DNA of 64,000 bases from Escherichia phage vB_EcoM_Goslar. The notes under the pieces were generated by a model, which did not search any database, was not told where the DNA came from, and saw only the letters and a list, made by a program, of their open reading frames with translations. Positions 7,549 to 51,059 of the stretch are shown here, one piece after another. The translations under genes were made by a program, and so were the position numbers. The DNA lies in the sequence record NC_048170.1. One strand, given 5' to 3'. Position 1 is the stretch's first letter. Each line of letters starts with the position of its first letter.

Positions 7549-8529
7549 TTAGAAAAGCAAGAAACCGCTATTCTTCGCTTCCGCTACAGTTTCGTCACCA
7601 ACTTTCGGTGCTTGTTGACGTGCGTTACGATGTTCGATGTAACGTTTCGCTTCGTCAGCGATTTGTTTGATAATACCCCCTAAACGATCGGTACTTAAAA
7701 CAAACGACGTCGCTTCACGAATCGGGCTGCTTTCAGGCACAAAACCATCACAGCTATAAATAGCGCTAACACCCATGACTTTTGTCGCGTCTTTCGGATA
7801 AAGCGTACAGAAAGCAATCGGGCTATCGTTCTCTTTCGTCCATTCGTATCCCATGAACGTATTCAGTTCGGTGATCGTCGGTTCCAAACCGGTAACACGT
7901 GGATGGTTTAAGAAGTTTTCCAGGTCGGCGCTGTCAAGACGACGGTTCTCGCCAGAAAACAGAACACAAAGCTGGCTAATAACAACCTGCACGTCCAGGT
8001 TGACATCCTGCTCCGATTTCCCATTTTCGCCATTCATGTGATAGCTAACAATCACTGGACGTTTCAACCCTTCTGCAGCCGCCATCAGTCCTTTGAAGGT
8101 GCGATCGGCGTTGATCGTCTGGCGCTCATCATCGAACGAGGCAACGATACAACACACCACACGTTCACCGCGTTCCAGCAGGTTAGCAACCAACGCAGGA
8201 CCGGCAACAGAACCTGAACCACCGCTCAAACTAAAGACCACGATATTAAATTTACCTGGCGTATGCTTATTGAGAATACCTGGGATTTGTGAACAGATCA
8301 GTTCAGCGTTCTCATCACGCTTCTTACCAGAACCGTCTAACTCACGACCAGCTGCATCTTTAAAGATGTAAATATGATCGTCGCCCAGTGTGCTATCGCG
8401 TAGGTTAGCGCGGCTGGTATCAACATACGTCATGCTGTGTAATCCTTTCGCGACTTCGCCTTCAAATGCTGAGCCGATTTCGCCACCACAACCACCGACA
8501 GCCCAAATATGTACTTGGTTCTCTTGCAT
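7549..8529 (-). CDS. phuZ: tubulin/FtsZ-like GTPase (PhuZ-like)
   Basis: N-terminal WAVGGCGGEIG and SLSGGSGSVAGP (tubulin signature GGGTGSG-like); RBS AGGAG before ATG at 8529. Confidence 0.7.
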   Translation of the reverse strand: MQENQVHIWAVGGCGGEIGSAFEGEVAKGLHSMTYVDTSRANLRDSTLGDDHIYIFKDAAGRELDGSGKKRDENAELICSQIPGILNKHTPGKFNIVVFSLSGGSGSVAGPALVANLLERGERVVCCIVASFDDERQTINADRTFKGLMAAAEGLKRPVIVSYHMNGENGKSEQDVNLDVQVVISQLCVLFSGENRRLDSADLENFLNHPRVTGLEPTITELNTFMGYEWTKENDSPIAFCTLYPKDATKVMGVSAIYSCDGFVPESSPIREATSFVLSTDRLGGIIKQIADEAKRYIEHRNARQQAPKVGDETVAEAKNSGFLLF

Positions 8530-8593
8530 GTGAACTCCTAATTTAATATGTATTTAACGCACAATGAATCTTTCTTTGCTAAAGGGGTGACCC

Positions 8594-9436
8594 ATGGGTG
8601 CTATTGACTACAGTGTAGATCGTATCTGTCGTACAATACCGGCAGACATCCTACAGTATTGCTATATCGATCGCTACGACTGGCGTAATCGCTATCCTCG
8701 TTCCGTAGAAGACATCATTACCGATTGGGTAATCCGTAAACGGGTTATCGGCGACATCGATATCTACGGGGGACTACAAACCGTTATTCCCCTTGATGAT
8801 GCCGGTGTCACTATCGAAGAAGTCACCATCAACTGTTATGTTTTCCACATTCCGTTGGAAGCCACGCAGGGACGTTATATCACGTCTGCATTATCCATTA
8901 TCTCAGGGAGCGTGAACAACTACGGAATAAACTATAACGGGCAATGGGGCGCTTTCAACCAAACCCAATTTCAACGTCAGCTTTGTGGGTGGAACCCCGC
9001 AAGCAACACGTTACAGCAAGGGATGAACGCGTTCGGTCCCATGAACGTTCTTAGTACAGCCAACGTTGATATCATCGCACCTAACACCATCATGGTGAAC
9101 AACGTCACGCCGGTACAATTTCCCCTGAGCCTACGCTGTTTCCTTGCCCACGATCCGGAACTTACCAACCTCAGCATGGAGGTTTGGAACGACTTCTACA
9201 AACTCTGTTTATACGCCACACAAAGTGACATCTACAACAGAACCGTTATCCGTCTCGATAGAGGTGTTACAGCACAAGGACAAGAAGTCGGTGCATTCAA
9301 GGAATACATCGATCGCTTTGCCGATGCTGAAAACACATATCAGGAATTCCTGAACGAAACGTGGGCTGGCGTTGCTGCCTGGAACGATCCACAAACTAAA
9401 CGTCGCGCCATTCGACTACAAACCGGTTACTTCTGA
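8594..9436 (+). CDS. hypothetical protein
   Basis: 280-aa ORF. Confidence 0.55.
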   Translation: MGAIDYSVDRICRTIPADILQYCYIDRYDWRNRYPRSVEDIITDWVIRKRVIGDIDIYGGLQTVIPLDDAGVTIEEVTINCYVFHIPLEATQGRYITSALSIISGSVNNYGINYNGQWGAFNQTQFQRQLCGWNPASNTLQQGMNAFGPMNVLSTANVDIIAPNTIMVNNVTPVQFPLSLRCFLAHDPELTNLSMEVWNDFYKLCLYATQSDIYNRTVIRLDRGVTAQGQEVGAFKEYIDRFADAENTYQEFLNETWAGVAAWNDPQTKRRAIRLQTGYF

Positions 9437-38266: not shown

Positions 38267-38446
38267 TTAGGCTCCACGAGGTCCCGTTAAGTTGCGTAAT
38301 AGGAACGCAACCGTATCGTAACCAATATCAATGTTGAATTTATTTTTACCACTTACCCAGAAAGCTCGCTTCTTGTGCGAGTTGGTAATTTCGTCAATAG
38401 CTTCCATGGAATAAAGAACGTTAACCGAGACCGTATCACCGTCGAA
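38267..38446 (-). CDS. RNAP beta-prime-like subunit, exon 2
   Basis: frame translates FDGDTVSVNVLYSMEAIDEITN...GYDTVAFLLRNLTGPRGA*, colinear with E. coli beta-prime after DFDGD; below 60-codon ORF-track cutoff. Confidence 0.6.
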   Translation of the reverse strand, partial: FDGDTVSVNVLYSMEAIDEITNSHKKRAFWVSGKNKFNIDIGYDTVAFLLRNLTGPRGA

Positions 38447-38930
38447 CCTTGTCTTCGCCTCAGGTCGCTACGCTGAGACCGCCTGCATGGATACGTACAT
38501 CACAGGCTGCTTGCACTTTCATGCAAGAGGAGACTATATCAAACCGTCAGCTTCACTTTCTCGATCATATCGAGAATGCGGCGCTGAAGTATTCTTCAGC
38601 AGCACCTGTTACGGTAACCTACACTTCGAAGACGCTTGTCCTCTACAGGGTGGTAAATCCCTTAGTCGTTGAACCTGCGTTGTTTCACATTCTTACAACC
38701 AAGAATGCCGTATTGCTACGCAATAACCAGGCTGCTGATTGCCCATTGTCTCGCACCTTAGCACCGCTTACGCGGCTTTTCTTTCAGCCTAAGCCTCTTA
38801 CGGAGGTAGTGCATCTCAACTGTTGTTTCTGCCTTTCGGCACCTCATGGGTCGTTGAGCTTTAGGGGTTCCCAGCAATTCGTAGGTTTTTCAAGCACTCC
38901 CTTTCAGGAATACCGGACCTTATAGAAAAG
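38447..38930 (-). ncRNA. group I intron catalytic core (3' part of intron)
   Basis: minus strand: AATTGCTGGGAA (38879-38868), AATCAGCAGCC (38740-38730), GTTCAACGACTAAG (38674-38661), GATATAGTCTCC (38540-38529) in P-Q-R-S order; no ORF of 60 codons or more on the coding strand. Confidence 0.6.
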
Positions 38931-40403
38931 CTATTTATTCAAGTATCTGAAATCCCACTTATCCTTACGTCTATTATCGCACTTGATGTCAGGATGTCTA
39001 ACACGGTGTTGAATCGTAGTCGCTGGTAATTGACTCACATTCACAGCCGATTTCGCGCCAAGAACAATTGTTTTTGTGTTGTCCGGACGAGTAACTTCTA
39101 CCGCTCGATGATGTTTACGTAACACATCACGCCAATACTCACGCCGTTCCGGTTCCGCGTATTCGAGCATATAACCGTTGGTATCGACCAGACCGTAACT
39201 CTCGTTTAAACGAGAGGTGGCGGCTGGTCTACTAATACCAATCGCTTTAGCCGCGTCAACCACGGTTTTATACGGGGTCTCATTACCGTCTCTATCTACA
39301 ACCACAATAAAATCTGGACGCGAATCGAGCAGCTGCTGTCTTCGTTCAAGGGCTTGTTGATGAAGCACCTTATTAACATGTTCGAACCCGTAACCTTCTG
39401 GACCGTGCCACCCTGGATTGTTATTCGCTCGATAAAGTATCGTCGCAGATTTCACTCCCGTCTGACGTGACGCCTCGTTCGCACTATGGACAACCGTGGT
39501 AGTGCCATCAGGGTGATATATCCGTATCTGGTTCATTATACCAGAACCAACGAAATTACCATCAGCTGATTTAATGTCCGGCCAGGGTTGTGGATCATCT
39601 TTGAATTTAACCACCCAACGGTTGTTAAACAATTTGACTTTCCGAGCATGTTTACCTAATGTCGTGTCTGTAACACCGGCTACAGCAGAGGCTTGCGCGA
39701 TACTAGGATATTCCGTGACCACATCTTCTTCAGTATCCCAAAGGAGAACCGGTTTGTTATCATCACGTAGTCCGGTCTCAACCGCATGTAGAATATTTCT
39801 AAGGCGGGTTGCCCATTCTAGATTGTCTAACGCGTAATTCCACTTATCGCCATCAAGATGGTTAACGTCCATCCTATCGACATCAGCCGGATAATCTTTC
39901 CACGCTAAGAGCAGACAGCGATGAAGCGATCTTCTCTGGGATTTAAATCGGCAATCATGCTGCATACTAACGAAAACATAGCTATCGTCAACACACCAGT
40001 GAGGACACTGACGGCCAGTAATACGGTTGATGATTCTACCTTTCCGGTTGGCCAAATAACGAGTGTGTCCGGGAATGACACGATAACCTGGGTACTTAGC
40101 GATTTCGTAAGCAGGCTCGAACCGATAGGATAAATTATCAACATCCCAGTTAGATTCGTCACCATCAACAAACATCGCTTTGACGTATTTCTGTGTTTCA
40201 ATATCAACCAGGATGTTTTTGTGTGCGATACAAATCAATGCTGGGATATTGAATTCGCGACCGGCTATGATAACCGTGTCGCCATTTCTCGGTACCTCGA
40301 CGTGGGTATCGCGATACCGTAAGTTTCCATAGCCGTCTATTTCAATCCAGCTTAAAAACGGAATGGGTATAAACTCTTTTTCAGATACTCGCCATTTAAA
40401 CAT
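38931..40403 (-). CDS. HNH homing endonuclease (intron-encoded)
   Basis: HNH motif VNHLDGDKWNYALDNLEWATRLRN; C-terminal repeated DNA-binding-like modules (SIAQASAVAGVTDTTLGKHARK, TVVDAAKAIGISRPAATSRL). Confidence 0.8.
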   Translation of the reverse strand: MFKWRVSEKEFIPIPFLSWIEIDGYGNLRYRDTHVEVPRNGDTVIIAGREFNIPALICIAHKNILVDIETQKYVKAMFVDGDESNWDVDNLSYRFEPAYEIAKYPGYRVIPGHTRYLANRKGRIINRITGRQCPHWCVDDSYVFVSMQHDCRFKSQRRSLHRCLLLAWKDYPADVDRMDVNHLDGDKWNYALDNLEWATRLRNILHAVETGLRDDNKPVLLWDTEEDVVTEYPSIAQASAVAGVTDTTLGKHARKVKLFNNRWVVKFKDDPQPWPDIKSADGNFVGSGIMNQIRIYHPDGTTTVVHSANEASRQTGVKSATILYRANNNPGWHGPEGYGFEHVNKVLHQQALERRQQLLDSRPDFIVVVDRDGNETPYKTVVDAAKAIGISRPAATSRLNESYGLVDTNGYMLEYAEPERREYWRDVLRKHHRAVEVTRPDNTKTIVLGAKSAVNVSQLPATTIQHRVRHPDIKCDNRRKDKWDFRYLNK

Positions 40404-40410
40404 TTCAATA

Positions 40411-40440
40411 CCTATTAATTACCACTTTCATATTAATAGG
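40411..40440 (-). promoter_or_regulatory. AT-rich 9-bp hairpin just upstream of HNH start codon
   Basis: minus strand cctattaat-atgaaagtggta-attaatagg ending 8 nt before ATG. Confidence 0.35.
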
Positions 40441-40490
40441 TTTAAAAGTTAAATTTGCCAGAAAACTGGCATTTTGTTAGCCTTTCCTTG

Positions 40491-41957
40491 ATCACCGCCA
40501 AGTCCGGCGAGGTATGGCGCAGGGACAATAGTAGTTTCTACGAACGAGGCATTAGGTAACCAGTCGGGGTATTCCCACGCAATAAATCGCTCATCCGTTA
40601 TTGGTTCCCAGTTACTATCAAGTTCAGTTTTCGGTTTTGCTGCAACGGTCGTACGCGCGTAACAGGTTAACGGAATGACGGATTGCATACCCGATACCGG
40701 ATAACGTGTTACCATTGCAGCCAGGTTATTCCAGTATTTATATCCTGCGATATACACTAATTCGGTATACGTGATAGGGTGAACATCTGCACCAGGTTTG
40801 TTAAGCATCTCCGGAGGTAATTCACTCATACCACGGAATAACCGAAACGAATCATTGTTCACATAGACAAGACAAAGATATCGTCCATTAACCATGATAG
40901 GTTCGTTACGCACACCCGGATCGCTTAAGGTGTTCAGTAAGCGTTCTATTCCGTCCCAGGTTGTAAAGTCATCGATGGTGTCTGGATCAAGCGTGACGCG
41001 TTCACGTTCCATCGTTTCGGTATCAATAAGTTCAACTTCTGTAACATCACGGACAAATATTTCCTGCAAAATCCCCGTACGTAATGCATGTTGCGTTACA
41101 GGGAGAGCAGCTTTACTCATCTGGTATAACCCTAACTGAACCGCGGTACAGGAAGGCTGGTTAGGCGACCCTAGTACCTCCGTTGTGGGGTTAATTGCTG
41201 AAATAACGTTACGGGTTGAGTTCCAAACGCGACGTGAACCAAACTTACCTTGGAAGATCCCTTTCTTACCTTGGAACATATCCAACAACAAAGCGTAGAT
41301 ATCGTTAAATGTTCTCTGTAAGCTCCAGCGCTGGCCGTCGTAAACGGGATCAGAATAATCTTTTAATCCATCGGGGACGGTGTTAGAAATTGCAAGGAAA
41401 CGACGATACAACTCTGTAATCTCTTGCTCGCTTTCATACCCGCCTTCTTTTACTTCTATTTCACGTAAGCCTGCAGGCAATACCAGTAAGTGACGGGTCA
41501 TCGCTTTGAACATGTTCTCTTCGACAACTTTAATTCGTAGCTCTCGTTGAGCTGAGCCCGTTGAAACGAACTTGATATCCGCGACGTGTTGTGCAAAGAA
41601 CCCGTATCCTGTTTGTCCTGTTAACGCATCAGACGCAACGAAGTCGCGTTGTTCAGGATCCCAACGAGCGTACGCCTTCCCCGACATGATATCACCATAG
41701 AGGTGTTTTAGTCGAATGAGGCGGTCGTAAATGACAGGGTGCAGGATTTCAACTTTACATTCAATCACCGCAAATCGACGGTCTCGATCTTCACTACCCG
41801 CACTACCAAAGATGGTGTAAGAATAGAAACCATCATCGTGGAAATTACCGGTGCTTGGGTCACGAATGCTCATGCTCGTGATCTTGGGGAGAAAACGTAA
41901 CTGCTGTTTATCGAGGTGTAAAATGCTAATGTTAAACGGCTCTCTGACTTTAGCCAT
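40491..41957 (-). CDS. RNAP beta-prime-like subunit (N-terminal fragment), exon 1
   Basis: RBS GAGGAG before ATG at 41957; blocks LLVLPAGLREIEV, KKGIFQGKFGSRRVWNSTRNVISAINP, RYPVSGMQSVIP align with [41 protein letters not shown]; ORF-track tail past 40491 is intron read-through. Confidence 0.6.
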
Positions 41958-42202
41958 GGAGACACTCCTCTTTACCACCACCGGCTGCGGCGGTATCATC
42001 TGAACACACGAGAGACGTAATGGGTGATGGCGTCACCCATCGCTTCCTTGCTTGAGGCGAGGAAGTTATTAGGTTACGTACCTGCGTGATAAAATCAAGC
42101 AGGCGATGTGTGAAGTTACGCTTCAACATTATCAATGCCGAAGGTAAACTTCGTGCATCACGTTCCAACGTAACATGGGAACGTATCGAACTGGAGGTAT
42201 AC

Positions 42203-45200
42203 ATGGTAGATAAAACCCGTGTTGAGGGTGATGATAATTGGGATAACTGGGATGAAGACTTCTCCCTGGATCTCGATTTTAACGAACCCAAAGACGATCG
42301 TAAACCGATAACACGCTTTGCGATAGGAGCGGTTAAAGGTGCTGCTGAGGATCTTACTTCCTACGAAAGAATGAAGGAGATCGCCAGAAACGCATTGCCT
42401 AAGGGCTACAGCGACGGTATGGATCTTATCGATTCCGCCGTCGGATCCACGAAGGAACTATACAATGAAGCCGTTCGTGACGTTCTTCCTAAGGTCCAAA
42501 GCTCAAAACGGTTAGCAGCACAACTGACCAAGAAATACCGTGCGAGCATGCCCGATTTCTCGAAGAAAATTCTTGAGCAATGGGAGCGAGAAGCCAAGGA
42601 AGAAGACGAACGTAAACAAGCTGAAGAAGCCCTTCGTCAACGCATGGCGAGCGCGGGGGACGATGAGATCGCCCGCAAGGTTGCCGAGGCATTAGGCGAA
42701 TCAGCAAACCAAAGCGCGGATCAGTTTGCTGAACAGCAAGCGAAAGAAAGTATCCGTGACGATATCGCTGACAAACGGTACGCTGTAACCAACAAACAAA
42801 TGAGTGCGATGCAAGAAGGCGTCGCCAAGATGGTTGGTTTCAACAATGAATTCGCTGCACGCTACATGCGTAAAAGCCTGGAACTGAAATATCGTTCCTT
42901 AGCGATTCAACGTGCAAGTTTCGATCAGCATAAAAAGTTAGCCGAAGTCTATATCGGTCTATTACAAAACATCCAGAAGAATACGGCTTTACCTGATGCA
43001 GCTAAAGCGAAGATGTCGGAAGAATTCCGTCGTAGTGCATACCAACGTTTCTTTGGTAATGCGTTAGATGCGATGGGTTCTTTCGAGAACCGTTTCTTTG
43101 CCGATGTTAAGAAGAACCTCGCCACCAACGCATTAGGTGCTTTAAAAGGCGTCGTGTCTGGCGCAAACGATGCGTTATACGGTTTAAACGAAGCACGTGA
43201 CTCGATGTCCATGATGGACGGGATGGGGTCAGAAGGCGATATTAAGGAAATGCAAGGAAGGATGTTGGGTCAGTTCATTGGCTCAACTGTCGCGCCGTGG
43301 ATGGCTAATAAAGGCAGGATGGCGTTACGCGATTTAGCAAAACGTCACCCCAATGCTAAATTCGCAGGTGCGTTAAAAGCCGTGGATCAAGGTGGTGAGG
43401 CTGCCGCTTACACGACGCGTAATCTCGGTAAACTGCTCCAGGAAGATATTCGTAAGAACGAATTCAATCTTAGCGATCCATTTTACAAGCAATTGTTACG
43501 CGGCGCAGGGCGTTGGGCGTTCAACATGGACAGCGGACGTAACTTCCGTGTGATGAACGACACCGCTGAAACACTGGCAGAGCAAACATCTTTCGACGGT
43601 TTAACCTACCGCAGCATCAACGAGGTTATTCCGGGCTTTCTTGCACGCATTCTGAAAAGCAGTGAGGGTATCCGCACCGGAAACAGCGATCCTGACTACG
43701 AGGTCTATGACGGCATCAGCGGGCAATTCGTGGCTCAGCGCACGCGCGAACAAAGCGTCAACGACACGCTGTTTAACAAACGTTCGTTTGGTTATTACGC
43801 AAGCCGTTTCAATGAGGTTATCTCGGTCATCGATCCCGATAAACAATTATCGGAAAAAGCCAGAAAGGCGCTGGCCAAGCAGTTGGCACGAGATAGCGAC
43901 GCAAACATTGCATTCGACCCAGCTCGTTTTACGGATGAAAGCAACTTCGATCGTAGTATCGACCGTGACGCTATTAAGGAACTTTCCACATACTTTCGAG
44001 ACCGTTACGGTATTCGTGATGATGTCAACGATAAGGGCGAACGTCATCAGGTCATTGGAAACCGCGGGCAATATTACACGGAACGTAACCGAGCTGACCT
44101 TCGCTACGGAAATCTGAAATCGTTACAACCGGATATTCAGCGTAACCTTAACCTACTGAAACGTACTGGTGACGTCCAATATCTGGAACGTATCGGTATC
44201 GTAACGAGAAATAGCGACGGAAGCTACTCAGTTAATCACGATCGGTATTTCTCTGAAATCGATCGATACATCGACCGACCGGAGTACGCTGACCGCGGCG
44301 ATGTTAATACGCGATTAACCGCTCAGGAAACAAGAGCGCTGGCGTTGGGTTATCGTGACGCAAAACCATCAACTGGTGACGTCCAAAATGCGGGTCTGCC
44401 GAACATCGATCGTAAGGCTGCTGGAACAGTAACCGTTGATGAAAACATCGGCTACGATAAATGGTGGAACGACGCTGGCGTTATCACTACATCGCTTGAA
44501 GAACAGAATCGAGCATGGCAAGAACTCTATCTCGAAGCGTTATCTGAAGCATCCGAACAACGTGTCGAAATGCTTGCGTTGCTGAAAGCCATTTCTGAGA
44601 AAGACTGGTCTAATAACGTTTCGCTGGATGGTGAAGACGTACCTGAAGGTGCAGCGCCCATTTCATTTATCGATCGCGCCAAACAAAAACTCGGCGGACG
44701 CAACCTCTTTAAAGGTGGCCGTAATCTCCTCTGGAAAGGAATTAAAAATACCGCACGATTGGGTGTTAAAGGCGCACGTTGGGGTGCAGAACGTACATTA
44801 GGTAGTTTGGTAAATTCCGGCCGACGTATTATCAATTTCAACCGTTTTGTGTTCGGCGCATTATCCAAGGTCGATCAGGTTCCGTTTGACATTTACGTTA
44901 AAGGGGAATCCCAACCACGCATACTGGCTGCCAAACTTCGTCAGGGGTTATACTTCGACGAGGCGACAGGAAAAGCCGTAAAACGGATGAAGGATATCAA
45001 AGGCCCACTCGTTGATGCGGATGGAAACGTCGTAATCAGCAACGAGGATATCGAGAAAGGGCTGGTCACTCGCGCTGGTCGTGCCTTTGAGAATTCAGGA
45101 CTTAAGGCGTGGGCGCATGAAGGTCTTAATGGAATAACGACGGTATTAAGTCTGCCACGGATGTTAAAACGCGGTGCGGTTGAGATCTACAAACAGCTTG

Positions 45201-48200
45201 ACAGAACACCCGACGTTTACGTCAAGGGAGAATCAACGCCTCGTCTATTATCCATGGTGTTAGCAGCGGGTGGGTATTTCCGTCGCTCTGATGGGCAAGT
45301 CATCAAAAATCTTGAAGACATCGATGGTGATGTTGTTGATGCACAAGGTAACGTCGTACTTACGCTTGCCGACATGCAGAAAGGACTTGTCGATAAATAC
45401 GGTAAAGCGATTCGTCGCTTAAAAGAAAAGCTCATCAACTTCGGTGTGAAAGCTTTCACGTTACCGTTAACCTTACTACGCAAGACAAAGGACATCCTTA
45501 AAGCCCTTCCAGGTAAAACCGTTAACGGTCTACGACGGATGGGATTAAATTTCCAATCACCTGACGCATTACTGGTGGGAACAACGTCGAGCATGGTAGA
45601 TCGGCTCGATGCGATTTACCAGCTTCTTGACCAGCGTATGCCGGGTGGTGATAAGGATTACCGCGATTGGGATGGCGATGGTGTTCGAGAAGGATCGTTG
45701 GAAGACCTGAAACGTAAACGTGCAGCCAAGGAAAACGGTGAGGATGACGCAGGCAAAGATTCCAATAAAGGGGAAGAAAAGGAGAAGAAACGAGGATTAC
45801 TCGGAAGCCTTTTCGATATGCTCGGCGATACCGCATTAGGTAAACGCCTCATGGCGAGTCCGCTTGGAAAAATTCTAGGTGGTCTTGGGGCGGTGTTAAG
45901 CGGCGGTGCATCGTTAACCGGGTTGTTGGGCAAAGGTCTCATTAGAGGAACCGGTGCACTGGTCAAGGGAGGACTAAGTGCGGCAGGATGGTTAGGACGT
46001 GGTGCGTTAATGGCGGGCGGGGCCGCATTGAACGCCGTTGGTGGGTTATCGGGATTAGGTGCATTCCTCATCTCACCTGTTGGGCTTGCTATCGCTGGCG
46101 GCGCATTGGCTGCTTATGCTGGATGGAAGATCTATCAGCATTTCGCCGAGAAGCCTGACCCGATGCAGAAGCTCCGTCTTATCGCATACGGTGTAAAAGG
46201 TGACGATAAAGACTTCAATAAGAAGCTGCTTGCGACAGAAACATACCTCACCGACCATGTGGTTATGACCGGGGATACCATCGGATTCGATCCGAAAGCC
46301 GATTCTGAAAAGATTCTCGAAATCTGGGAATTGTCCCTGGAAGATTCCGACCGAATGAACGAATGGAAACGTTGGTATCTACATCGTTTTATTCCTGTTT
46401 TCGCTCGTGCGTACAAACTCTGGAAAGAGCATATGCCGGACGAGAAGAAATACATGGAAATGGATAAATATCCAAACGGTGAGAACAAAGTGAAATGGTC
46501 GGAAGCGTTTATCTGGCCTTCCGATAGTCCTGATGGTCCGTATTACGTCGAAGCTAACCCGTTGGGTTCTTCTGGTGCGACGCGTTATATTGCTGGTCAA
46601 GACGTCAAAACCTTGATGCTGAAACAACTCGAAGCCATCAAGAAAGAGTACCAGAATCAGATTAAGCAATACTCTCATGATGAGGCTATTGCTGATTGGT
46701 CACGGATGTCTGACACACAACGTAAATCCGTTGCGCCTAACGCATTACGCGGTCAGAAAGCGTCGTTACGTTTTAACGATAAACGTTACAACAGTGCTGG
46801 CGCTAAAGGACGACAGAAACTGGATGCAACCGCGGTTATTGAAAGCGTAGACCGCCGCGGCAGGAAATGGGTTGCCGGTGGATACATCGATGAACTCACC
46901 AGTCTCCGTGTTCGCGCGTACGGTATCAAGGTTCCGTTGTTAAGCCAGATAAAAGTGCTGATGGAACTTGAAGACGCTGTAGAACCTGGCGTTGTCGCTG
47001 AAGGTAAAGGTGTTAAATACGGTGGCGATCTTGTCGCGCTCTACAAGAAATTCGCGACGAAGTTCGGAAGAGACGTTAACAGCAAGCATGATCAGGATAT
47101 CTGGTTTGCTTGGATGAATAACCGTTTCCTGCCCGTCTTTTTAACCTATTACCAACAAGTTAGCGAAATGGGCGGTCAAGGACTTCTGTCCGACGTGGTA
47201 CAGAACCTGAAAGACAGCCAGCGTTGGGAAATCGGTGAAGCACTTGTCGCAACGCAATACCGTGATGAGAAAGGTGCATTACAGCCTGTATGGTCGTGGA
47301 ACAGTTGTGGTTTCTCCGGTACTGAAGCTAACACCACCAGCAGTTCAACAAAGAGCCAACTCGATCTGTTAAAAGAATATGCGGATAAAGAGAAGGTTCG
47401 TGAGAAGAACGCGGAAGCATCGCAAGAGGATACCGATAAATTATCGAAGATCCAAGAGCTGATGATGAAGCAGGCTGGGTACGAGAAGAAAGACGGTGTC
47501 TGGCAGAAGAAATCTCGCATTACTGGTGGGATGAGTAACTCCGAAGCGAATTACAACCCCAATGGGAATAAGGTCGGTGCAAGCAGCTTTACTGCTTCGG
47601 CTACTTCCAATGCGGGATTGGGATCAACCGGCGATCTTACTGGATTGCCTAACATGGGCTTACAGAAACCGGCAACGGGACCGGGTCCTGAAGCTGGACG
47701 TCGTGCGCTTGTTAAATCCGCTGTAAAACGCGGTATTACCGATCCAATGGAAATGGCGATGTTCCTTGCGAACATCGAACATGAATCGGGGAACTACACT
47801 CACGTACGTGAGGGGAACTATAAGACACCTGAGCGTCTTAAACAGGTCTTCCCTTACAAATTCCGTGATGTGCAGGATGCCGCACAGACGATCAGCATGG
47901 GGCCGGAAGCGGTATTCGAACGTGTGTATGGTAATCGTAAAGACCTAGGAAACACACAGAAAGGAGACGGGGCGAAGTATTTAGGACGTGGATTCATTCA
48001 GGTTACCGGTAAAGCTAACTACGCTCGTCTGTCTAAGACCTTGAATAAGGATCTTGTCAGCGATCCGACATACCTGGAAACGCCGGAAGGTGCAGCGGAA
48101 GGTAGTGTTGCATGGTGGCTCAACCGAGGTAACGTATTACGCGATCCCGCAAAACGGGGTGACGTGCGCCAAGTTCGTTATCTGGTTAATGGTGGCTATA

Positions 48201-48868
48201 ACGGATTACGTGATGTTGAACAACGTTCTGCATATTGGATTCAGGCGGCTAAGAATGGCACCCTGAAGAAAATGATGGACGAGTTATCAGGGTCAACATC
48301 AGACGATCAAGCTGAAGGACCGACCACTGCCGAACAGGTGAAGAACGAAGCAGCACAAGAGGCAAACGGAACACCAGCTGTAAGCAACGATCCGCAAGCC
48401 CCAGTATCTTCTACTACCCCTGAAGCTAAACCGTCTGCAGCTGCCGGGACGGCCCCAGCACCTGGAGAAGCATCACCAACGCCTGGAAGTTTCGAAACAG
48501 CAAAAGCCGCGGCAGGACAACCGACATCAACTCCAGCACCTAGCGATTTGCCGTCAAACCCGGGCGCAAATCGAGGGATATCGGTTCCGAATACGCCTGC
48601 ACAGGTTGCACAGTCTGCGACACAAACGTCGGCTGCAAGTGAGAACTTCTACGGTAGCGCAGGTGAAATTCTCCGACAGCAGCTGACCACGCAGCAGAAC
48701 ATCGAGAAGAACACCGGTAGAACGAATGAACTTATTTCGGAATTAATCCAAGCCGTTAAGGGTTCTTCTATCGGTAAGGGTTCTGCAGGTCCTTCTCAAC
48801 AACAGACGATGTCGCTACCTAATCGTCCGCAAGGAATCTCTCCAACACGGACAAGGTACGCACAGTAG
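42203..48868 (+). CDS. giant virion-associated protein with GH19-type lysozyme domain
   Basis: start MVDKTRVE with RBS GGAGG; FLANIEHESGNY...YLGRGFIQVTGKANY lysozyme/chitinase-like block; Gly-rich hydrophobic segment GGLGAVLSGGASLTGLLG...AIAGGALAAYAGW. Confidence 0.6.
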   Translation: MVDKTRVEGDDNWDNWDEDFSLDLDFNEPKDDRKPITRFAIGAVKGAAEDLTSYERMKEIARNALPKGYSDGMDLIDSAVGSTKELYNEAVRDVLPKVQSSKRLAAQLTKKYRASMPDFSKKILEQWEREAKEEDERKQAEEALRQRMASAGDDEIARKVAEALGESANQSADQFAEQQAKESIRDDIADKRYAVTNKQMSAMQEGVAKMVGFNNEFAARYMRKSLELKYRSLAIQRASFDQHKKLAEVYIGLLQNIQKNTALPDAAKAKMSEEFRRSAYQRFFGNALDAMGSFENRFFADVKKNLATNALGALKGVVSGANDALYGLNEARDSMSMMDGMGSEGDIKEMQGRMLGQFIGSTVAPWMANKGRMALRDLAKRHPNAKFAGALKAVDQGGEAAAYTTRNLGKLLQEDIRKNEFNLSDPFYKQLLRGAGRWAFNMDSGRNFRVMNDTAETLAEQTSFDGLTYRSINEVIPGFLARILKSSEGIRTGNSDPDYEVYDGISGQFVAQRTREQSVNDTLFNKRSFGYYASRFNEVISVIDPDKQLSEKARKALAKQLARDSDANIAFDPARFTDESNFDRSIDRDAIKELSTYFRDRYGIRDDVNDKGERHQVIGNRGQYYTERNRADLRYGNLKSLQPDIQRNLNLLKRTGDVQYLERIGIVTRNSDGSYSVNHDRYFSEIDRYIDRPEYADRGDVNTRLTAQETRALALGYRDAKPSTGDVQNAGLPNIDRKAAGTVTVDENIGYDKWWNDAGVITTSLEEQNRAWQELYLEALSEASEQRVEMLALLKAISEKDWSNNVSLDGEDVPEGAAPISFIDRAKQKLGGRNLFKGGRNLLWKGIKNTARLGVKGARWGAERTLGSLVNSGRRIINFNRFVFGALSKVDQVPFDIYVKGESQPRILAAKLRQGLYFDEATGKAVKRMKDIKGPLVDADGNVVISNEDIEKGLVTRAGRAFENSGLKAWAHEGLNGITTVLSLPRMLKRGAVEIYKQLDRTPDVYVKGESTPRLLSMVLAAGGYFRRSDGQVIKNLEDIDGDVVDAQGNVVLTLADMQKGLVDKYGKAIRRLKEKLINFGVKAFTLPLTLLRKTKDILKALPGKTVNGLRRMGLNFQSPDALLVGTTSSMVDRLDAIYQLLDQRMPGGDKDYRDWDGDGVREGSLEDLKRKRAAKENGEDDAGKDSNKGEEKEKKRGLLGSLFDMLGDTALGKRLMASPLGKILGGLGAVLSGGASLTGLLGKGLIRGTGALVKGGLSAAGWLGRGALMAGGAALNAVGGLSGLGAFLISPVGLAIAGGALAAYAGWKIYQHFAEKPDPMQKLRLIAYGVKGDDKDFNKKLLATETYLTDHVVMTGDTIGFDPKADSEKILEIWELSLEDSDRMNEWKRWYLHRFIPVFARAYKLWKEHMPDEKKYMEMDKYPNGENKVKWSEAFIWPSDSPDGPYYVEANPLGSSGATRYIAGQDVKTLMLKQLEAIKKEYQNQIKQYSHDEAIADWSRMSDTQRKSVAPNALRGQKASLRFNDKRYNSAGAKGRQKLDATAVIESVDRRGRKWVAGGYIDELTSLRVRAYGIKVPLLSQIKVLMELEDAVEPGVVAEGKGVKYGGDLVALYKKFATKFGRDVNSKHDQDIWFAWMNNRFLPVFLTYYQQVSEMGGQGLLSDVVQNLKDSQRWEIGEALVATQYRDEKGALQPVWSWNSCGFSGTEANTTSSSTKSQLDLLKEYADKEKVREKNAEASQEDTDKLSKIQELMMKQAGYEKKDGVWQKKSRITGGMSNSEANYNPNGNKVGASSFTASATSNAGLGSTGDLTGLPNMGLQKPATGPGPEAGRRALVKSAVKRGITDPMEMAMFLANIEHESGNYTHVREGNYKTPERLKQVFPYKFRDVQDAAQTISMGPEAVFERVYGNRKDLGNTQKGDGAKYLGRGFIQVTGKANYARLSKTLNKDLVSDPTYLETPEGAAEGSVAWWLNRGNVLRDPAKRGDVRQVRYLVNGGYNGLRDVEQRSAYWIQAAKNGTLKKMMDELSGSTSDDQAEGPTTAEQVKNEAAQEANGTPAVSNDPQAPVSSTTPEAKPSAAAGTAPAPGEASPTPGSFETAKAAAGQPTSTPAPSDLPSNPGANRGISVPNTPAQVAQSATQTSAASENFYGSAGEILRQQLTTQQNIEKNTGRTNELISELIQAVKGSSIGKGSAGPSQQQTMSLPNRPQGISPTRTRYAQ

Positions 48869-48917: not shown

Positions 48918-51059
48918 ATGGGTATTCTTGTTCAAAACGCCCTAATTACCAAACAAGCGTTTTTATTACCAGGCGATAGCAGCACGCTTAGTGCCGACAT
49001 GATTAAAGCGAGACATACACCGTATTCCTACGATAACGTCGATGATACCACCTTAGGTGGGAACTGGGTGCTTAACCCACCGCCGCAATATACCAAATTT
49101 GCCGACATCAAAGAACGCCGACGTGCGGTTATGCCGGGATCAACGGGCATGGGTCGAGGCTATAGTGAAAGCATTAACAGCTTTAAAGAGGTCGTTACGT
49201 TACGATTCGGTAAACCTCGCTTTACAGGCGCAAGTATCTTCTTTACTGATTTCTACGATGCGGATGTTGCCGTAACGGTTAAAACCGGTCGCGATCCCGG
49301 TATCCTTTATTACGCAGCCAAAGCGTATACCACCGTTCTTTCTTACCTCACACCTCTACCCTACTTGTATATGGTTGGACGTATTGGTCGATATTTCCTG
49401 GGTAAGCCTACCAGTCAATATTACTATCAAGTACCAACCATGCATGTGTATTGGGCGTCTTTCCAGACGCTGGTAAACCAAACAGCGATAAACATGGGTC
49501 TTATCGCCGGTGCCGGTAAAGATAAAGGCTACGTGGAAGAAGGAGGTACCGTACTCCATCAATATTCAATCGGTGGTCAGAACGTTGAAGAATTCATCAA
49601 CTACGCGTCTAAGACGCTACCTGGGATTTATAAGAAAGGTGGTGGGATCGATATCTACCAGATTGCAACACGTCGTCAGCGTATACAGAACGCATGGGTA
49701 CGTCGTATTCAATCCATGATGGAAAACGATTACTCGTCTTACGAAGAATTCTGGAACGATCTTGATAAACGACTTGATAGCGGAGCGTTTCCATCGGATG
49801 TAACCGGCCGTACGCTAACGCAGTATCTCGCCGACACACAGAAGTCTGCTGTTTACAGCGCGACAGCTGGTGATAATAAACAAACGATGGACGACCTTTT
49901 ATTCGGAAGGGCCTCGTACACCAATAAAGATGCTGACGCCAACTTCAATGTCTCAGCGGCTACCTCCGACGGAGGTACGTCAACACAGAGTCAGGGTACA
50001 ACAGCCAATGTCGGTAATTCAACGTCAGGGACAACACAGGCTTCAACAGCAGCATCAACAGCTGGAGGCGCGAACGTACAGAGCAAAGGAATCGGGCAAA
50101 CGAACGCAGCCGAAGAAGCTACGTTTCTTGATCTGATGGATGCTGAATTGGCCGACGGTGCTCAGTTCATCAGTTTTCGAGTCGATTCTGTCACCAGTGT
50201 AACCGAAACGTTTTCAAACAGCGCTTCAGAAAGTTCTATCGCGCAGACGATGAACAGTCGTGCGCAAGCGAACATCGAACGTCGTTTCACCCTCTCCGGT
50301 GGTAATACCGGTTGGGCTGTACTGGACGAAGCCATCAAAGCCGGTTCCGACCTCGTCAATGGTGCTATTTCCGGGATGGGTCTGGATGGTATTTTTGGTG
50401 CCTTCATGGGTTCCGGCTTCGCTGACATTCCGAAATTCTATTCTGGTTCATCGGTAAGTCTTCCGCGTGCAGATCTGACGATGGAATTACGTTCCTGGAG
50501 TGGGGATCGCTGGTCGATCTTTACGAACCTCATGGTACCTCTTTTAGCGATCCTTGCAGGCGGTTTGCCTCAGGCTACCGGTAAATCGTCCTACGGGATG
50601 CCGTTCATGTGTGAGTGTTATATTCCCGGTAAAGTCCAGATTAAAATGGGCCTTATCGACAACATCACTGTGACGCGTCATGTTGGAAACGTGCCGTCAA
50701 CACGTGAGCGGTTACCGTTAGGCATCGATGTCAGCTTCAGTGTTTATGATCTGTCGTCCATCGTCGCAATGCCGATCACAACGACAGCCGCATCGATCGC
50801 AAAATTAGATCCTCGTGGCTTCTTAAGTGATCTTCTTGCTGACGATACTCCACTCAACAACTATCTTGCTGTGTTATCGGCATTGACGCTTACGGAACAA
50901 GTTTACATGATTCCGGATTTAAGTCGTCGCATGCATAAAACCATGGCTGATATCGATAGTTTCTGGAGCAAAGGTAATTTTGCTAGCTGGTTGTCTGACA
51001 CCATGCCTGGCAGGATAGCATCAGGGCTGTTATGGAAACGTACAGAACGACCGTTCTGA
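48918..51059 (+). CDS. putative virion structural protein
   Basis: 713-aa ORF with Ser/Thr/Gly-rich central region. Confidence 0.5.
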   Translation: MGILVQNALITKQAFLLPGDSSTLSADMIKARHTPYSYDNVDDTTLGGNWVLNPPPQYTKFADIKERRRAVMPGSTGMGRGYSESINSFKEVVTLRFGKPRFTGASIFFTDFYDADVAVTVKTGRDPGILYYAAKAYTTVLSYLTPLPYLYMVGRIGRYFLGKPTSQYYYQVPTMHVYWASFQTLVNQTAINMGLIAGAGKDKGYVEEGGTVLHQYSIGGQNVEEFINYASKTLPGIYKKGGGIDIYQIATRRQRIQNAWVRRIQSMMENDYSSYEEFWNDLDKRLDSGAFPSDVTGRTLTQYLADTQKSAVYSATAGDNKQTMDDLLFGRASYTNKDADANFNVSAATSDGGTSTQSQGTTANVGNSTSGTTQASTAASTAGGANVQSKGIGQTNAAEEATFLDLMDAELADGAQFISFRVDSVTSVTETFSNSASESSIAQTMNSRAQANIERRFTLSGGNTGWAVLDEAIKAGSDLVNGAISGMGLDGIFGAFMGSGFADIPKFYSGSSVSLPRADLTMELRSWSGDRWSIFTNLMVPLLAILAGGLPQATGKSSYGMPFMCECYIPGKVQIKMGLIDNITVTRHVGNVPSTRERLPLGIDVSFSVYDLSSIVAMPITTTAASIAKLDPRGFLSDLLADDTPLNNYLAVLSALTLTEQVYMIPDLSRRMHKTMADIDSFWSKGNFASWLSDTMPGRIASGLLWKRTERPF

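Follow-up and report, generated by a model that had tools for sequence, protein, structure and literature searches.

An orthologue of phiKZ gp181 with a GH19 endolysin-type domain: a probable tape-measure-like protein of a jumbo phage

What is the role, in a jumbo phage, of a protein of more than two thousand residues in which a cell-wall hydrolase domain is joined to a long scaffold? The question is raised by a gene in a 64,000-nucleotide (nt) stretch of Escherichia phage vB_EcoM_Goslar (NC_048170.1), called the window here, which also contains a tail sheath gene, the large terminase, the head protease, genes for virion proteins and RNA polymerase subunits, and which comes from a phiKZ-like (Chimalliviridae-type) jumbo phage. 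Judged by its sequence, the giant protein is the orthologue of phiKZ gp181 and not a mere parallel to it, and we consider it likely to be a tape-measure-like protein that lies in the tail lumen, is expelled at infection, cuts peptidoglycan and enters the membrane.

Identity, start codon and family of the giant gene

The features that define the gene and its surroundings are these:

38267 to 41999, minus strand: virion RNA polymerase beta-prime-like subunit gene (phiKZ gp180-like), upstream and divergent
42193 to 42197, plus strand: ribosome-binding site GGAGG, 5 nt ahead of the ATG at 42203
42203 to 48868, plus strand: coding sequence of the gp181 orthologue, 2221 amino acids, stop codon included
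48918 to 51059, plus strand: downstream gene, phiKZ gp182 orthologue (BLASTP E value 3e-59; phrog_3181, E 6e-172)

A BLASTP comparison with phiKZ gp181 (2237 amino acids) gave collinear alignments of residues 35-693 to 46-704 and of residues 887-1730 to 931-1765, with E values of 3e-45 and 4e-36, and the PHROG profile phrog_3201 matched residues 11-1174 (E 6e-295). The local gene order is that of phiKZ gp175 through gp182: two virion RNA polymerase genes on the minus strand, which match RNA polymerase families (phrog_2986, E 3e-161; phrog_3148, E 0), are followed by the giant gene on the plus strand and, 49 nt further on, by the gp182-like spacer gene, whose product of 713 amino acids is 25% identical to phiKZ gp182. 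In phiKZ, gp182 forms a hexameric spacer ring between the tube initiator and the hub (PMC13250141). The same order is found in Erwinia phage RAY (around gp162) and in the relatives L003 and L005. Orthology with phiKZ gp181 is assigned because collinear homology comes together with this shared gene order. The original prediction, made from the sequence alone, had noted only that the position next to the RNA polymerase genes parallels that of the tail-associated lysin of phiKZ-type phages; the parallel proves to be true orthology within a conserved gene order.

The open frame runs on the plus strand from 42086 (GTG), or from 42203 (ATG), to 48868. The start at the ATG is supported because distant homologues begin at the equivalent methionine, which is the start in the 88% homologue and in both 47% homologues, and because one 47% relative (L005) has an in-frame stop nine codons before its ATG, which is preceded by its own GGAGG in the 107 nt between divergent genes. 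A GTG upstream, at 42110 of the window, is the start chosen by the gene caller in the two closest metagenomic homologues. The choice of 42203 over 42086 in the original prediction, as well as its estimate of about 2200 amino acids for the product, therefore stands. A frame that stays open for about 2200 codons in DNA of 48% GC could not plausibly arise by chance, and we regard such an origin as impossible. A promoter and terminator scan gave results no better than those for shuffled sequences.

The family is large, as residues 1-700 match 1610 representatives of 50%-identity clusters, 383 of them at E below 1e-30; the matches always begin at the N-terminus of the representatives, most of which are 2000-2500 amino acids long. 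A megablast search of the giant gene against 50,697 phage records gave no DNA-level match, and the nearest proteins, at 98%, 89%, 88% and 47% identity, all come from metagenome assemblies, the others standing at about 25%. The giant protein is a divergent addition to a known and widespread family, of which the GH19 variant already occurs in cultured phages. In public read-set assemblies, the cluster of the 98%-identical protein counts 615 sequences; this phage or its close kin is therefore sampled frequently.

Labels given to the family in databases are inconsistent: 'tail fiber protein' (PHROG 3201, RefSeq), 'chitinase', 'endolysin' and 'soluble lytic murein transglycosylase' all occur, and the SLT label stands even on RSL2/FLC-type members whose domain is 41% identical to the present GH19 domain. 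A tail fibre or receptor-binding protein, as PHROG 3201 and RefSeq would have it, is extremely unlikely, since the database labels are the only point in its favour and no fibre-like repeats or receptor-binding folds were found. Moreover, the peptidoglycan targeted by the enzyme lies beneath the outer membrane, the fibres of phiKZ are built from the gp131-135 paralogues, and the scaffold of the giant protein is conserved across phages of very different hosts.

The lysin domain and the slot that it fills

Near the C-terminus, the following features were located:

47663 to 48295, plus strand: predicted GH19 endolysin-type muramidase domain, residues 1821-2031 (sequence, AlphaFold2 and Foldseek)
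47783 to 47785 and 47810 to 47812, plus strand: putative catalytic glutamates E1861 and E1870, 9 residues apart, like E51 and E60 of PaGH19Lys
48005 to 48007, plus strand: T1935 of the GRGFIQVT motif, equivalent to T129 of PaGH19Lys

Sequence comparison and modelling identify residues 1821-2031 as a domain of the GH19 endolysin type whose active site is intact and for which muramidase activity is predicted. The motif EHESG begins at residue 1859, counted from the ATG, and GRGFIQVTG begins at residue 1928. The domain matches the PHROG endolysin family 181 (phrog_181, E 4e-53) and solved GH19 endolysins (9eoi, E 8e-24; 7r6s, 1.5e-22; 4ok7, 6e-19), with chitinases marginal at E above 1e-3. An AlphaFold2 (AF2) model built from an alignment of ten family members has a predicted local distance difference test (pLDDT) score above 90 for residues 1821-2031, and in a Foldseek search the top 45 matches listed (E up to 0.5) were all GH19 endolysin-type lysozymes or chitinases; the best PDB matches were GH19 endolysins, with template modelling scores of 0.69-0.74 normalised to the target, and GH19 chitinases came next. 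The active site described for PaGH19Lys consists of H50, E51, E60, Y103, Q127, T129, I187, N188 and R197 (PMC12329726). The equivalents here are H1860, E1861, E1870, Y1909, Q1933, T1935, V1995, N1996 and R2008; eight of the nine are identical and the ninth is a change from I to V. In 10 GH19-type family members, the active-site columns are invariant or nearly so, and both E1861 and E1870 are invariant. The family match, the solved endolysins, the fold and the active site all bear out the GH19-type lysozyme domain with EHESG that had been proposed. Its placement as 'internal' needs correction, as the domain is present as claimed and occupies 82-91% of the length, near the C-terminus and not in mid-protein.

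The closest relatives of the GH19 domain (41-46% identity) are not free endolysins but parts of the same giant protein in jumbo phages of Erwinia, Ralstonia/Burkholderia, Proteus and Salmonella; the GH19 module is therefore old within this lineage. No GH19 paralogue, such as a free endolysin, was found elsewhere in the window.

Could the protein then be an endolysin or a chitinase, acting from within at lysis or on chitin? Homologues are indeed labelled 'putative endolysin' or 'chitinase', and the GH19 family includes chitinases. However, no endolysin resembles a protein of 2221 amino acids with a conserved scaffold of about 1800 non-enzymatic residues, the endolysin of phiKZ is a different protein (gp144), and the domain groups with the GH19 endolysin branch (E 1e-24 to 1e-19) and only weakly with chitinases (E above 1e-3). 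PaGH19Lys cuts the bond between N-acetylmuramic acid (MurNAc) and N-acetylglucosamine (GlcNAc) but not chitin, and the characterised relatives of the present domain are muramidases without chitinase activity (PMC12329726). The 'chitinase' labels on homologues are misleading because PaGH19Lys leaves chitin uncut, and we consider a lysis endolysin or a chitinase very unlikely.

The type of lysin differs among members of the family. A census of 228 full-length members gave:

SLT: 146 members (64%)
GH19: 30 members (13%)
M23: 9 members
CHAP and/or phage tail lysozyme: 9 members, one of them also with SLT
VgrG3-like C-terminal domain: 5 members
no lysin detected: 29 members

The median position, as a fraction of protein length, is 0.87 for SLT, 0.86 for GH19 and 0.87 for M23, and the present GH19 domain has its midpoint at 0.87. 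The slot at about 87% of the length holds a swappable lysin cassette, and at least five types of enzyme occur in it. In phiKZ gp181, the SLT domain is very similar to that phage's own endolysin gp144 (E 4e-57).

Scaffold, hydrophobic segment and role in the virion

Outside the lysin domain, the protein is divided as follows, all on the plus strand:

42305 to 44152, plus strand: family-defining N-terminal block, residues 35-650, charged, mostly long helices
43700 to 44302, plus strand: compact alpha/beta domain, about residues 500-700, AF2 pLDDT 80-93
44867 to 45526, plus strand: tandem duplication A, residues 889-996 and 997-1108, two small beta-rich modules
45788 to 46132, plus strand: Gly/Ala/Leu-rich hydrophobic segment, residues 1196-1310, by hydropathy and composition; candidate membrane-inserting part
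46160 to 47167, plus strand: duplication B region, residues 1320-1410 and 1565-1655, with the motif R..YG...W..W...RF.PV
48296 to 48640, plus strand: low-complexity Pro/Thr/Ser/Ala-rich linker, residues 2032-2146, by composition
48641 to 48865, plus strand: C-terminal amphipathic helix (L..QL..QQ) and short basic terminal peptide, by family comparison

AlphaFold predictions covered residues 1-1200, with a 33-sequence alignment as input, as well as the GH19 region to residue 2066. A charged, helix-prone N-terminal half had been foreseen from the sequence, and this is confirmed by its content of 31% K/R/D/E and by the AF2 model, in which predicted helices of up to 85 residues make up 77% of residues 1-500 and 63% of residues 1-1200. 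The N-terminal block is aligned in about 80-88 of 90 distant homologues to around residue 550 and in 48 by residue 650. The domain at about residues 500-700, the sole confidently folded part of residues 1-1200, is without a PDB structural match; Foldseek of the residue 1-1200 model against the PDB gave no meaningful match, and the family profile found lysin domains only in the PDB, leaving the 1800 non-lysin residues, as well as those of phiKZ gp181, without a solved relative. The copies of duplication A are 39% identical (E 2e-23), have AF2 pLDDT values of 76-82, and are both present in phiKZ gp181. Those of duplication B, which follow directly after the hydrophobic segment, are 28% identical (E 1e-5). 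Whole-protein self-BLAST at E 1e-3 missed these internal repeats, which were found by pairwise segment comparison. The motif R..YG...W..W...RF.PV is the most conserved non-enzymatic motif of the family, with near-invariant R, Y, G, E, W, R and F columns, and its region had no match in Pfam, PHROG families of assigned function or the PDB. The linker contains 59% P/T/S/A over residues 2032-2154, and its pLDDT is below 50 over the modelled residues 2032-2066. The helix L..QL.VQ, then P[VI].[MF].[RK], ends most of the roughly 60 homologues printed, as well as phiKZ gp181, and this helix and peptide may anchor the protein to the baseplate hub.

The hydrophobic segment contains 28 G, 15 A and 21 L in residues 1201-1300 and reaches Kyte-Doolittle values of 1.6 to 1.9 in 19-residue windows at 1224-1243 and 1272-1308. 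A comparable segment is found in 84 of 97 family members, at a relative position of 0.59, so the Gly/Ala/Leu-rich hydrophobic stretch of the original prediction is a family-wide feature. The glycine zipper that had been read into it is rejected: GxxxGxxxG does not occur in the segment, GxxxG occurs 3 times, against 6.7 +/- 2.0 in composition-matched shuffles, and the relaxed motif [GAS]xxxGxxx[GAS] occurs 4 times, against 5.6. On its own, the segment weakly matches four tape-measure PHROG families (E 1e-3 to 4e-3) and, also weakly, the 'tmp' chain of PDB 8kea (E 0.085). It is conceivable, albeit distinctly unlikely, that the hydrophobic segment and the two R..YG...W..W...RF.PV modules make the whole family a membrane-remodelling effector, not a simple tape measure, in which case the swappable lysin would merely clear the way.

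We propose instead that the N-terminal 1200 or so residues, charged and mostly helical, would lie in the tail-tube lumen as tape measure and assembly scaffold, and that the C-terminal 45% or so, comprising the hydrophobic segment, the two conserved modules, the GH19 muramidase, the flexible linker and the terminal helix and peptide, would occupy the end next to the baseplate, directly over the gp182-like spacer ring. On sheath contraction, with a separate spike complex shed, the protein would be expelled C-terminus first; the GH19 domain would hydrolyse the MurNAc-GlcNAc bond of peptidoglycan locally, and the hydrophobic segment would enter the inner membrane and help to form a conduit for DNA and co-injected proteins. 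We infer the tail-lumen position, the orientation, the ejection, the membrane insertion and the enzymatic activity, and the protein is presumably virion-associated, to judge from its homologues. The phiKZ record annotates gp181 as tail-associated. Mass spectrometry detected RAY gp162, which is a homologue of the GH19 type (PMC6690015), and a TnSeq (transposon sequencing) preprint on phiKZ found orf181 to be essential and considered it a likely tape measure (PMC12676376). The phiKZ tube consists of 43 rings with a rise of 37.7 A and has a lumen of 68 A (PMC13250141). The product of 43 and 37.7 A, about 162 nm, corresponds to some 1100 helical residues at 1.5 A each, suggestively near the roughly 1195 that precede the hydrophobic segment.

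Published structures bear on where the protein is not, as well as on where it might be. In the 2026 structural atlas of phiKZ, the puncturing device consists of gp164/gp163.1/gp101/gp182, and gp181 is unmentioned and absent from the 40 modelled proteins (PMC13250141); in the Goslar structure, all hub and spike density is assigned to other proteins and the gp181 homologue is unmentioned. The view of phiKZ gp181 from 2007-2008, that it is a needle-like cell-puncturing device under the baseplate, is still listed in reviews (PMC5380687; PMC5468394). T4 gp5 provides a precedent for a lysozyme-bearing spike. This view is nonetheless largely refuted, and we hold it to be very improbable, as, in cryo-electron microscopy of phiKZ and Goslar, other proteins account for the spike, tip, hub and spacer, and no hub or spike density is left unassigned. 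Pfam and Foldseek revealed no fold of a spike, a VgrG protein or a fibre; signatures of an OB-fold, a beta-helix or VgrG were likewise absent from the Pfam results and from Foldseek of residues 1-1200, and the prediction is largely helical.

The main rival to a tape measure is an internal head protein, which would share the capsid with the virion RNA polymerase and be ejected by way of the tail to form a trans-envelope channel like T7 gp16, which also carries a lytic domain. The giant gene adjoins the virion RNA polymerase genes, which encode head-packaged and injected proteins, the combination of a lysin with a hydrophobic segment also suits ejectosome proteins, and the protein is absent from the ordered phiKZ tail and baseplate models. 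Against this stand the tail-associated annotation of gp181 in the phiKZ record, the baseplate spacer-ring gene directly downstream, at a distance of 49 nt, the matches of the hydrophobic segment to tape-measure profiles only, and the suggestive agreement of size and helical content with tube length. None of these four points is decisive; we regard a head-ejection protein as unlikely.

Several observations weigh against a tape measure with a GH19 muramidase. The published phiKZ and Goslar structures do not see gp181 or its homologue in the tube lumen. Many tape-measure genes have an upstream pair of chaperone genes with a frameshift, and no such frameshifted pair was found upstream of the giant gene. 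The mean pLDDT of the AF2 model for residues 1-1200 is low (55.7) and compact domains are present, which makes the arithmetic from residues to length only suggestive. The weak matches of the hydrophobic segment to tape-measure families could reflect composition alone, and the corresponding segment of phiKZ gp181 is much less hydrophobic, with a maximum hydropathy of 1.25 (1.91 here). As for the lysin, the Pfam search that had been suggested as a check gave a sub-threshold result, PF00182 scoring 18.3 bits against a gathering cutoff of 25.5 with 39 residues matched, and the closest homologues (P0001-P0005) have no precomputed Pfam hit; PF00182, described as 'Chitinase class I', is a chitinase-based model, and the PHROG, PDB-sequence and fold searches do assign the region to GH19.

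The interrupted RNA polymerase gene and comparison with known systems

The upstream gp180-like gene is interrupted by a group I intron:

41999 to 40491, minus strand: exon 1 of the gp180-like gene
40490 to 38447, minus strand: group I intron, 2044 nt (Rfam RF00028, 67.7 bits, core 38938-38510)
40403 to 38931, minus strand: HNH homing-endonuclease open reading frame (ORF) inside the intron, just ahead of the intron core
38446 to 38267, minus strand: exon 2, 59 codons

The intron splits the gene exactly inside the catalytic GGD|FDGD (DFDGD) motif. Exon 1 ends ...LAGLGGD at 40491, its last base being T, the last base of the intron is G at 38447, and exon 2 begins FDGDTVS...; these boundaries obey the U...G rule. 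The 516-amino-acid ORF called here consists of exon 1 and 13 read-through codons, and exon 2, which lacks its own start codon, is missing from the list of ORFs. A 158-amino-acid ORF with a TTG start on the plus strand (38449-38925) is antisense to the intron core, has no PHROG match, and can almost certainly be discounted as a gene.

Relatives differ with respect to this intron. The 47% relative (L005, 7250-8893) has no intron, its contiguous gene of 547 amino acids reading ...LKGLGGDFDGDTVS... through GGDFDGD, and in the 89% relative (L003, 7906-8370) a group I intron occupies this site, with no HNH ORF and a gap of about 630 nt. In phiKZ (NC_004629), the same intron is found after gp179 (92 bits, minus strand, 8397-8718), and a short exon 2 (FDGDTVSFNAVYSEE...), the same as the present one, is found at about 8160-8400 on the minus strand; the RefSeq coding sequence of phiKZ gp180 stops at ...LAPLGAD and hence is without the DFDGD motif. 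An intron at phiKZ gp179 was predicted in 2002, and long-read RNA sequencing saw no splicing (PMC10914365), a report that sits oddly with the conserved exon 2.

For the giant gene itself, the analysis gives a confident identity and a fixed start codon in place of labels such as 'tail fiber', 'chitinase' and 'endolysin'. The lysin cassette and the features that are family-wide, namely the hydrophobic segment, the two internal duplications and the helix and peptide at the C-terminus, should help in working out where gp181 lies in the structures of phiKZ and Goslar, and the GH19 fragment, residues 1821-2031, is a candidate for enzybiotic work. Current understanding is not overturned by these findings.

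Among known systems, the closest comparison is with phiKZ gp181, which was reportedly described by Briers et al. in 2008 as a 'structural peptidoglycan hydrolase'. The two proteins are nearly equal in size and collinear over residues 35-693 and 887-1730, and each has both A repeats, a Gly/Ala-rich segment at about 55-60% of its length, a lysin at about 87% and, at the C-terminus, a helix followed by a basic peptide; the gene order is identical. They differ in that their identity is only about 24-25%, that phiKZ gp181 carries an SLT lytic transglycosylase whereas the present protein carries a GH19 hydrolase, and that segment hydropathy is 1.25 there and 1.91 here. The GH19-type homologues in cultured jumbo phages, in Erwinia RAY (gp162) and Ea35-70, Ralstonia RSL2, Proteus phage 10 and Salmonella SA002, share both the architecture and the GH19 cassette, at an overall identity of only about 25-28%.

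The lysin domain has the same fold as PaGH19Lys (PDB 9eoi) and SPN1S (PDB 4ok7), with template modelling scores of 0.69-0.73 normalised to the target, about 30% identity and the active-site residues H, E, E, Y, Q, T, N and R in common; those enzymes, however, are free proteins of about 210 amino acids that act from within at lysis, whereas the domain here is embedded in a structural protein of 2221 amino acids. For the protein as a whole, the tape measure of T5, pb2, is a functional analogue without detectable sequence homology. The T5 tail is non-contractile and the lytic domain of pb2 is a peptidase, not a glycosidase. As in the arrangement proposed here, a helical N-terminal region of considerable length serves pb2 as a ruler, its hydrophobic segments are proposed to insert into the membrane, its muralytic domain is C-terminal, and the protein is expelled at infection.

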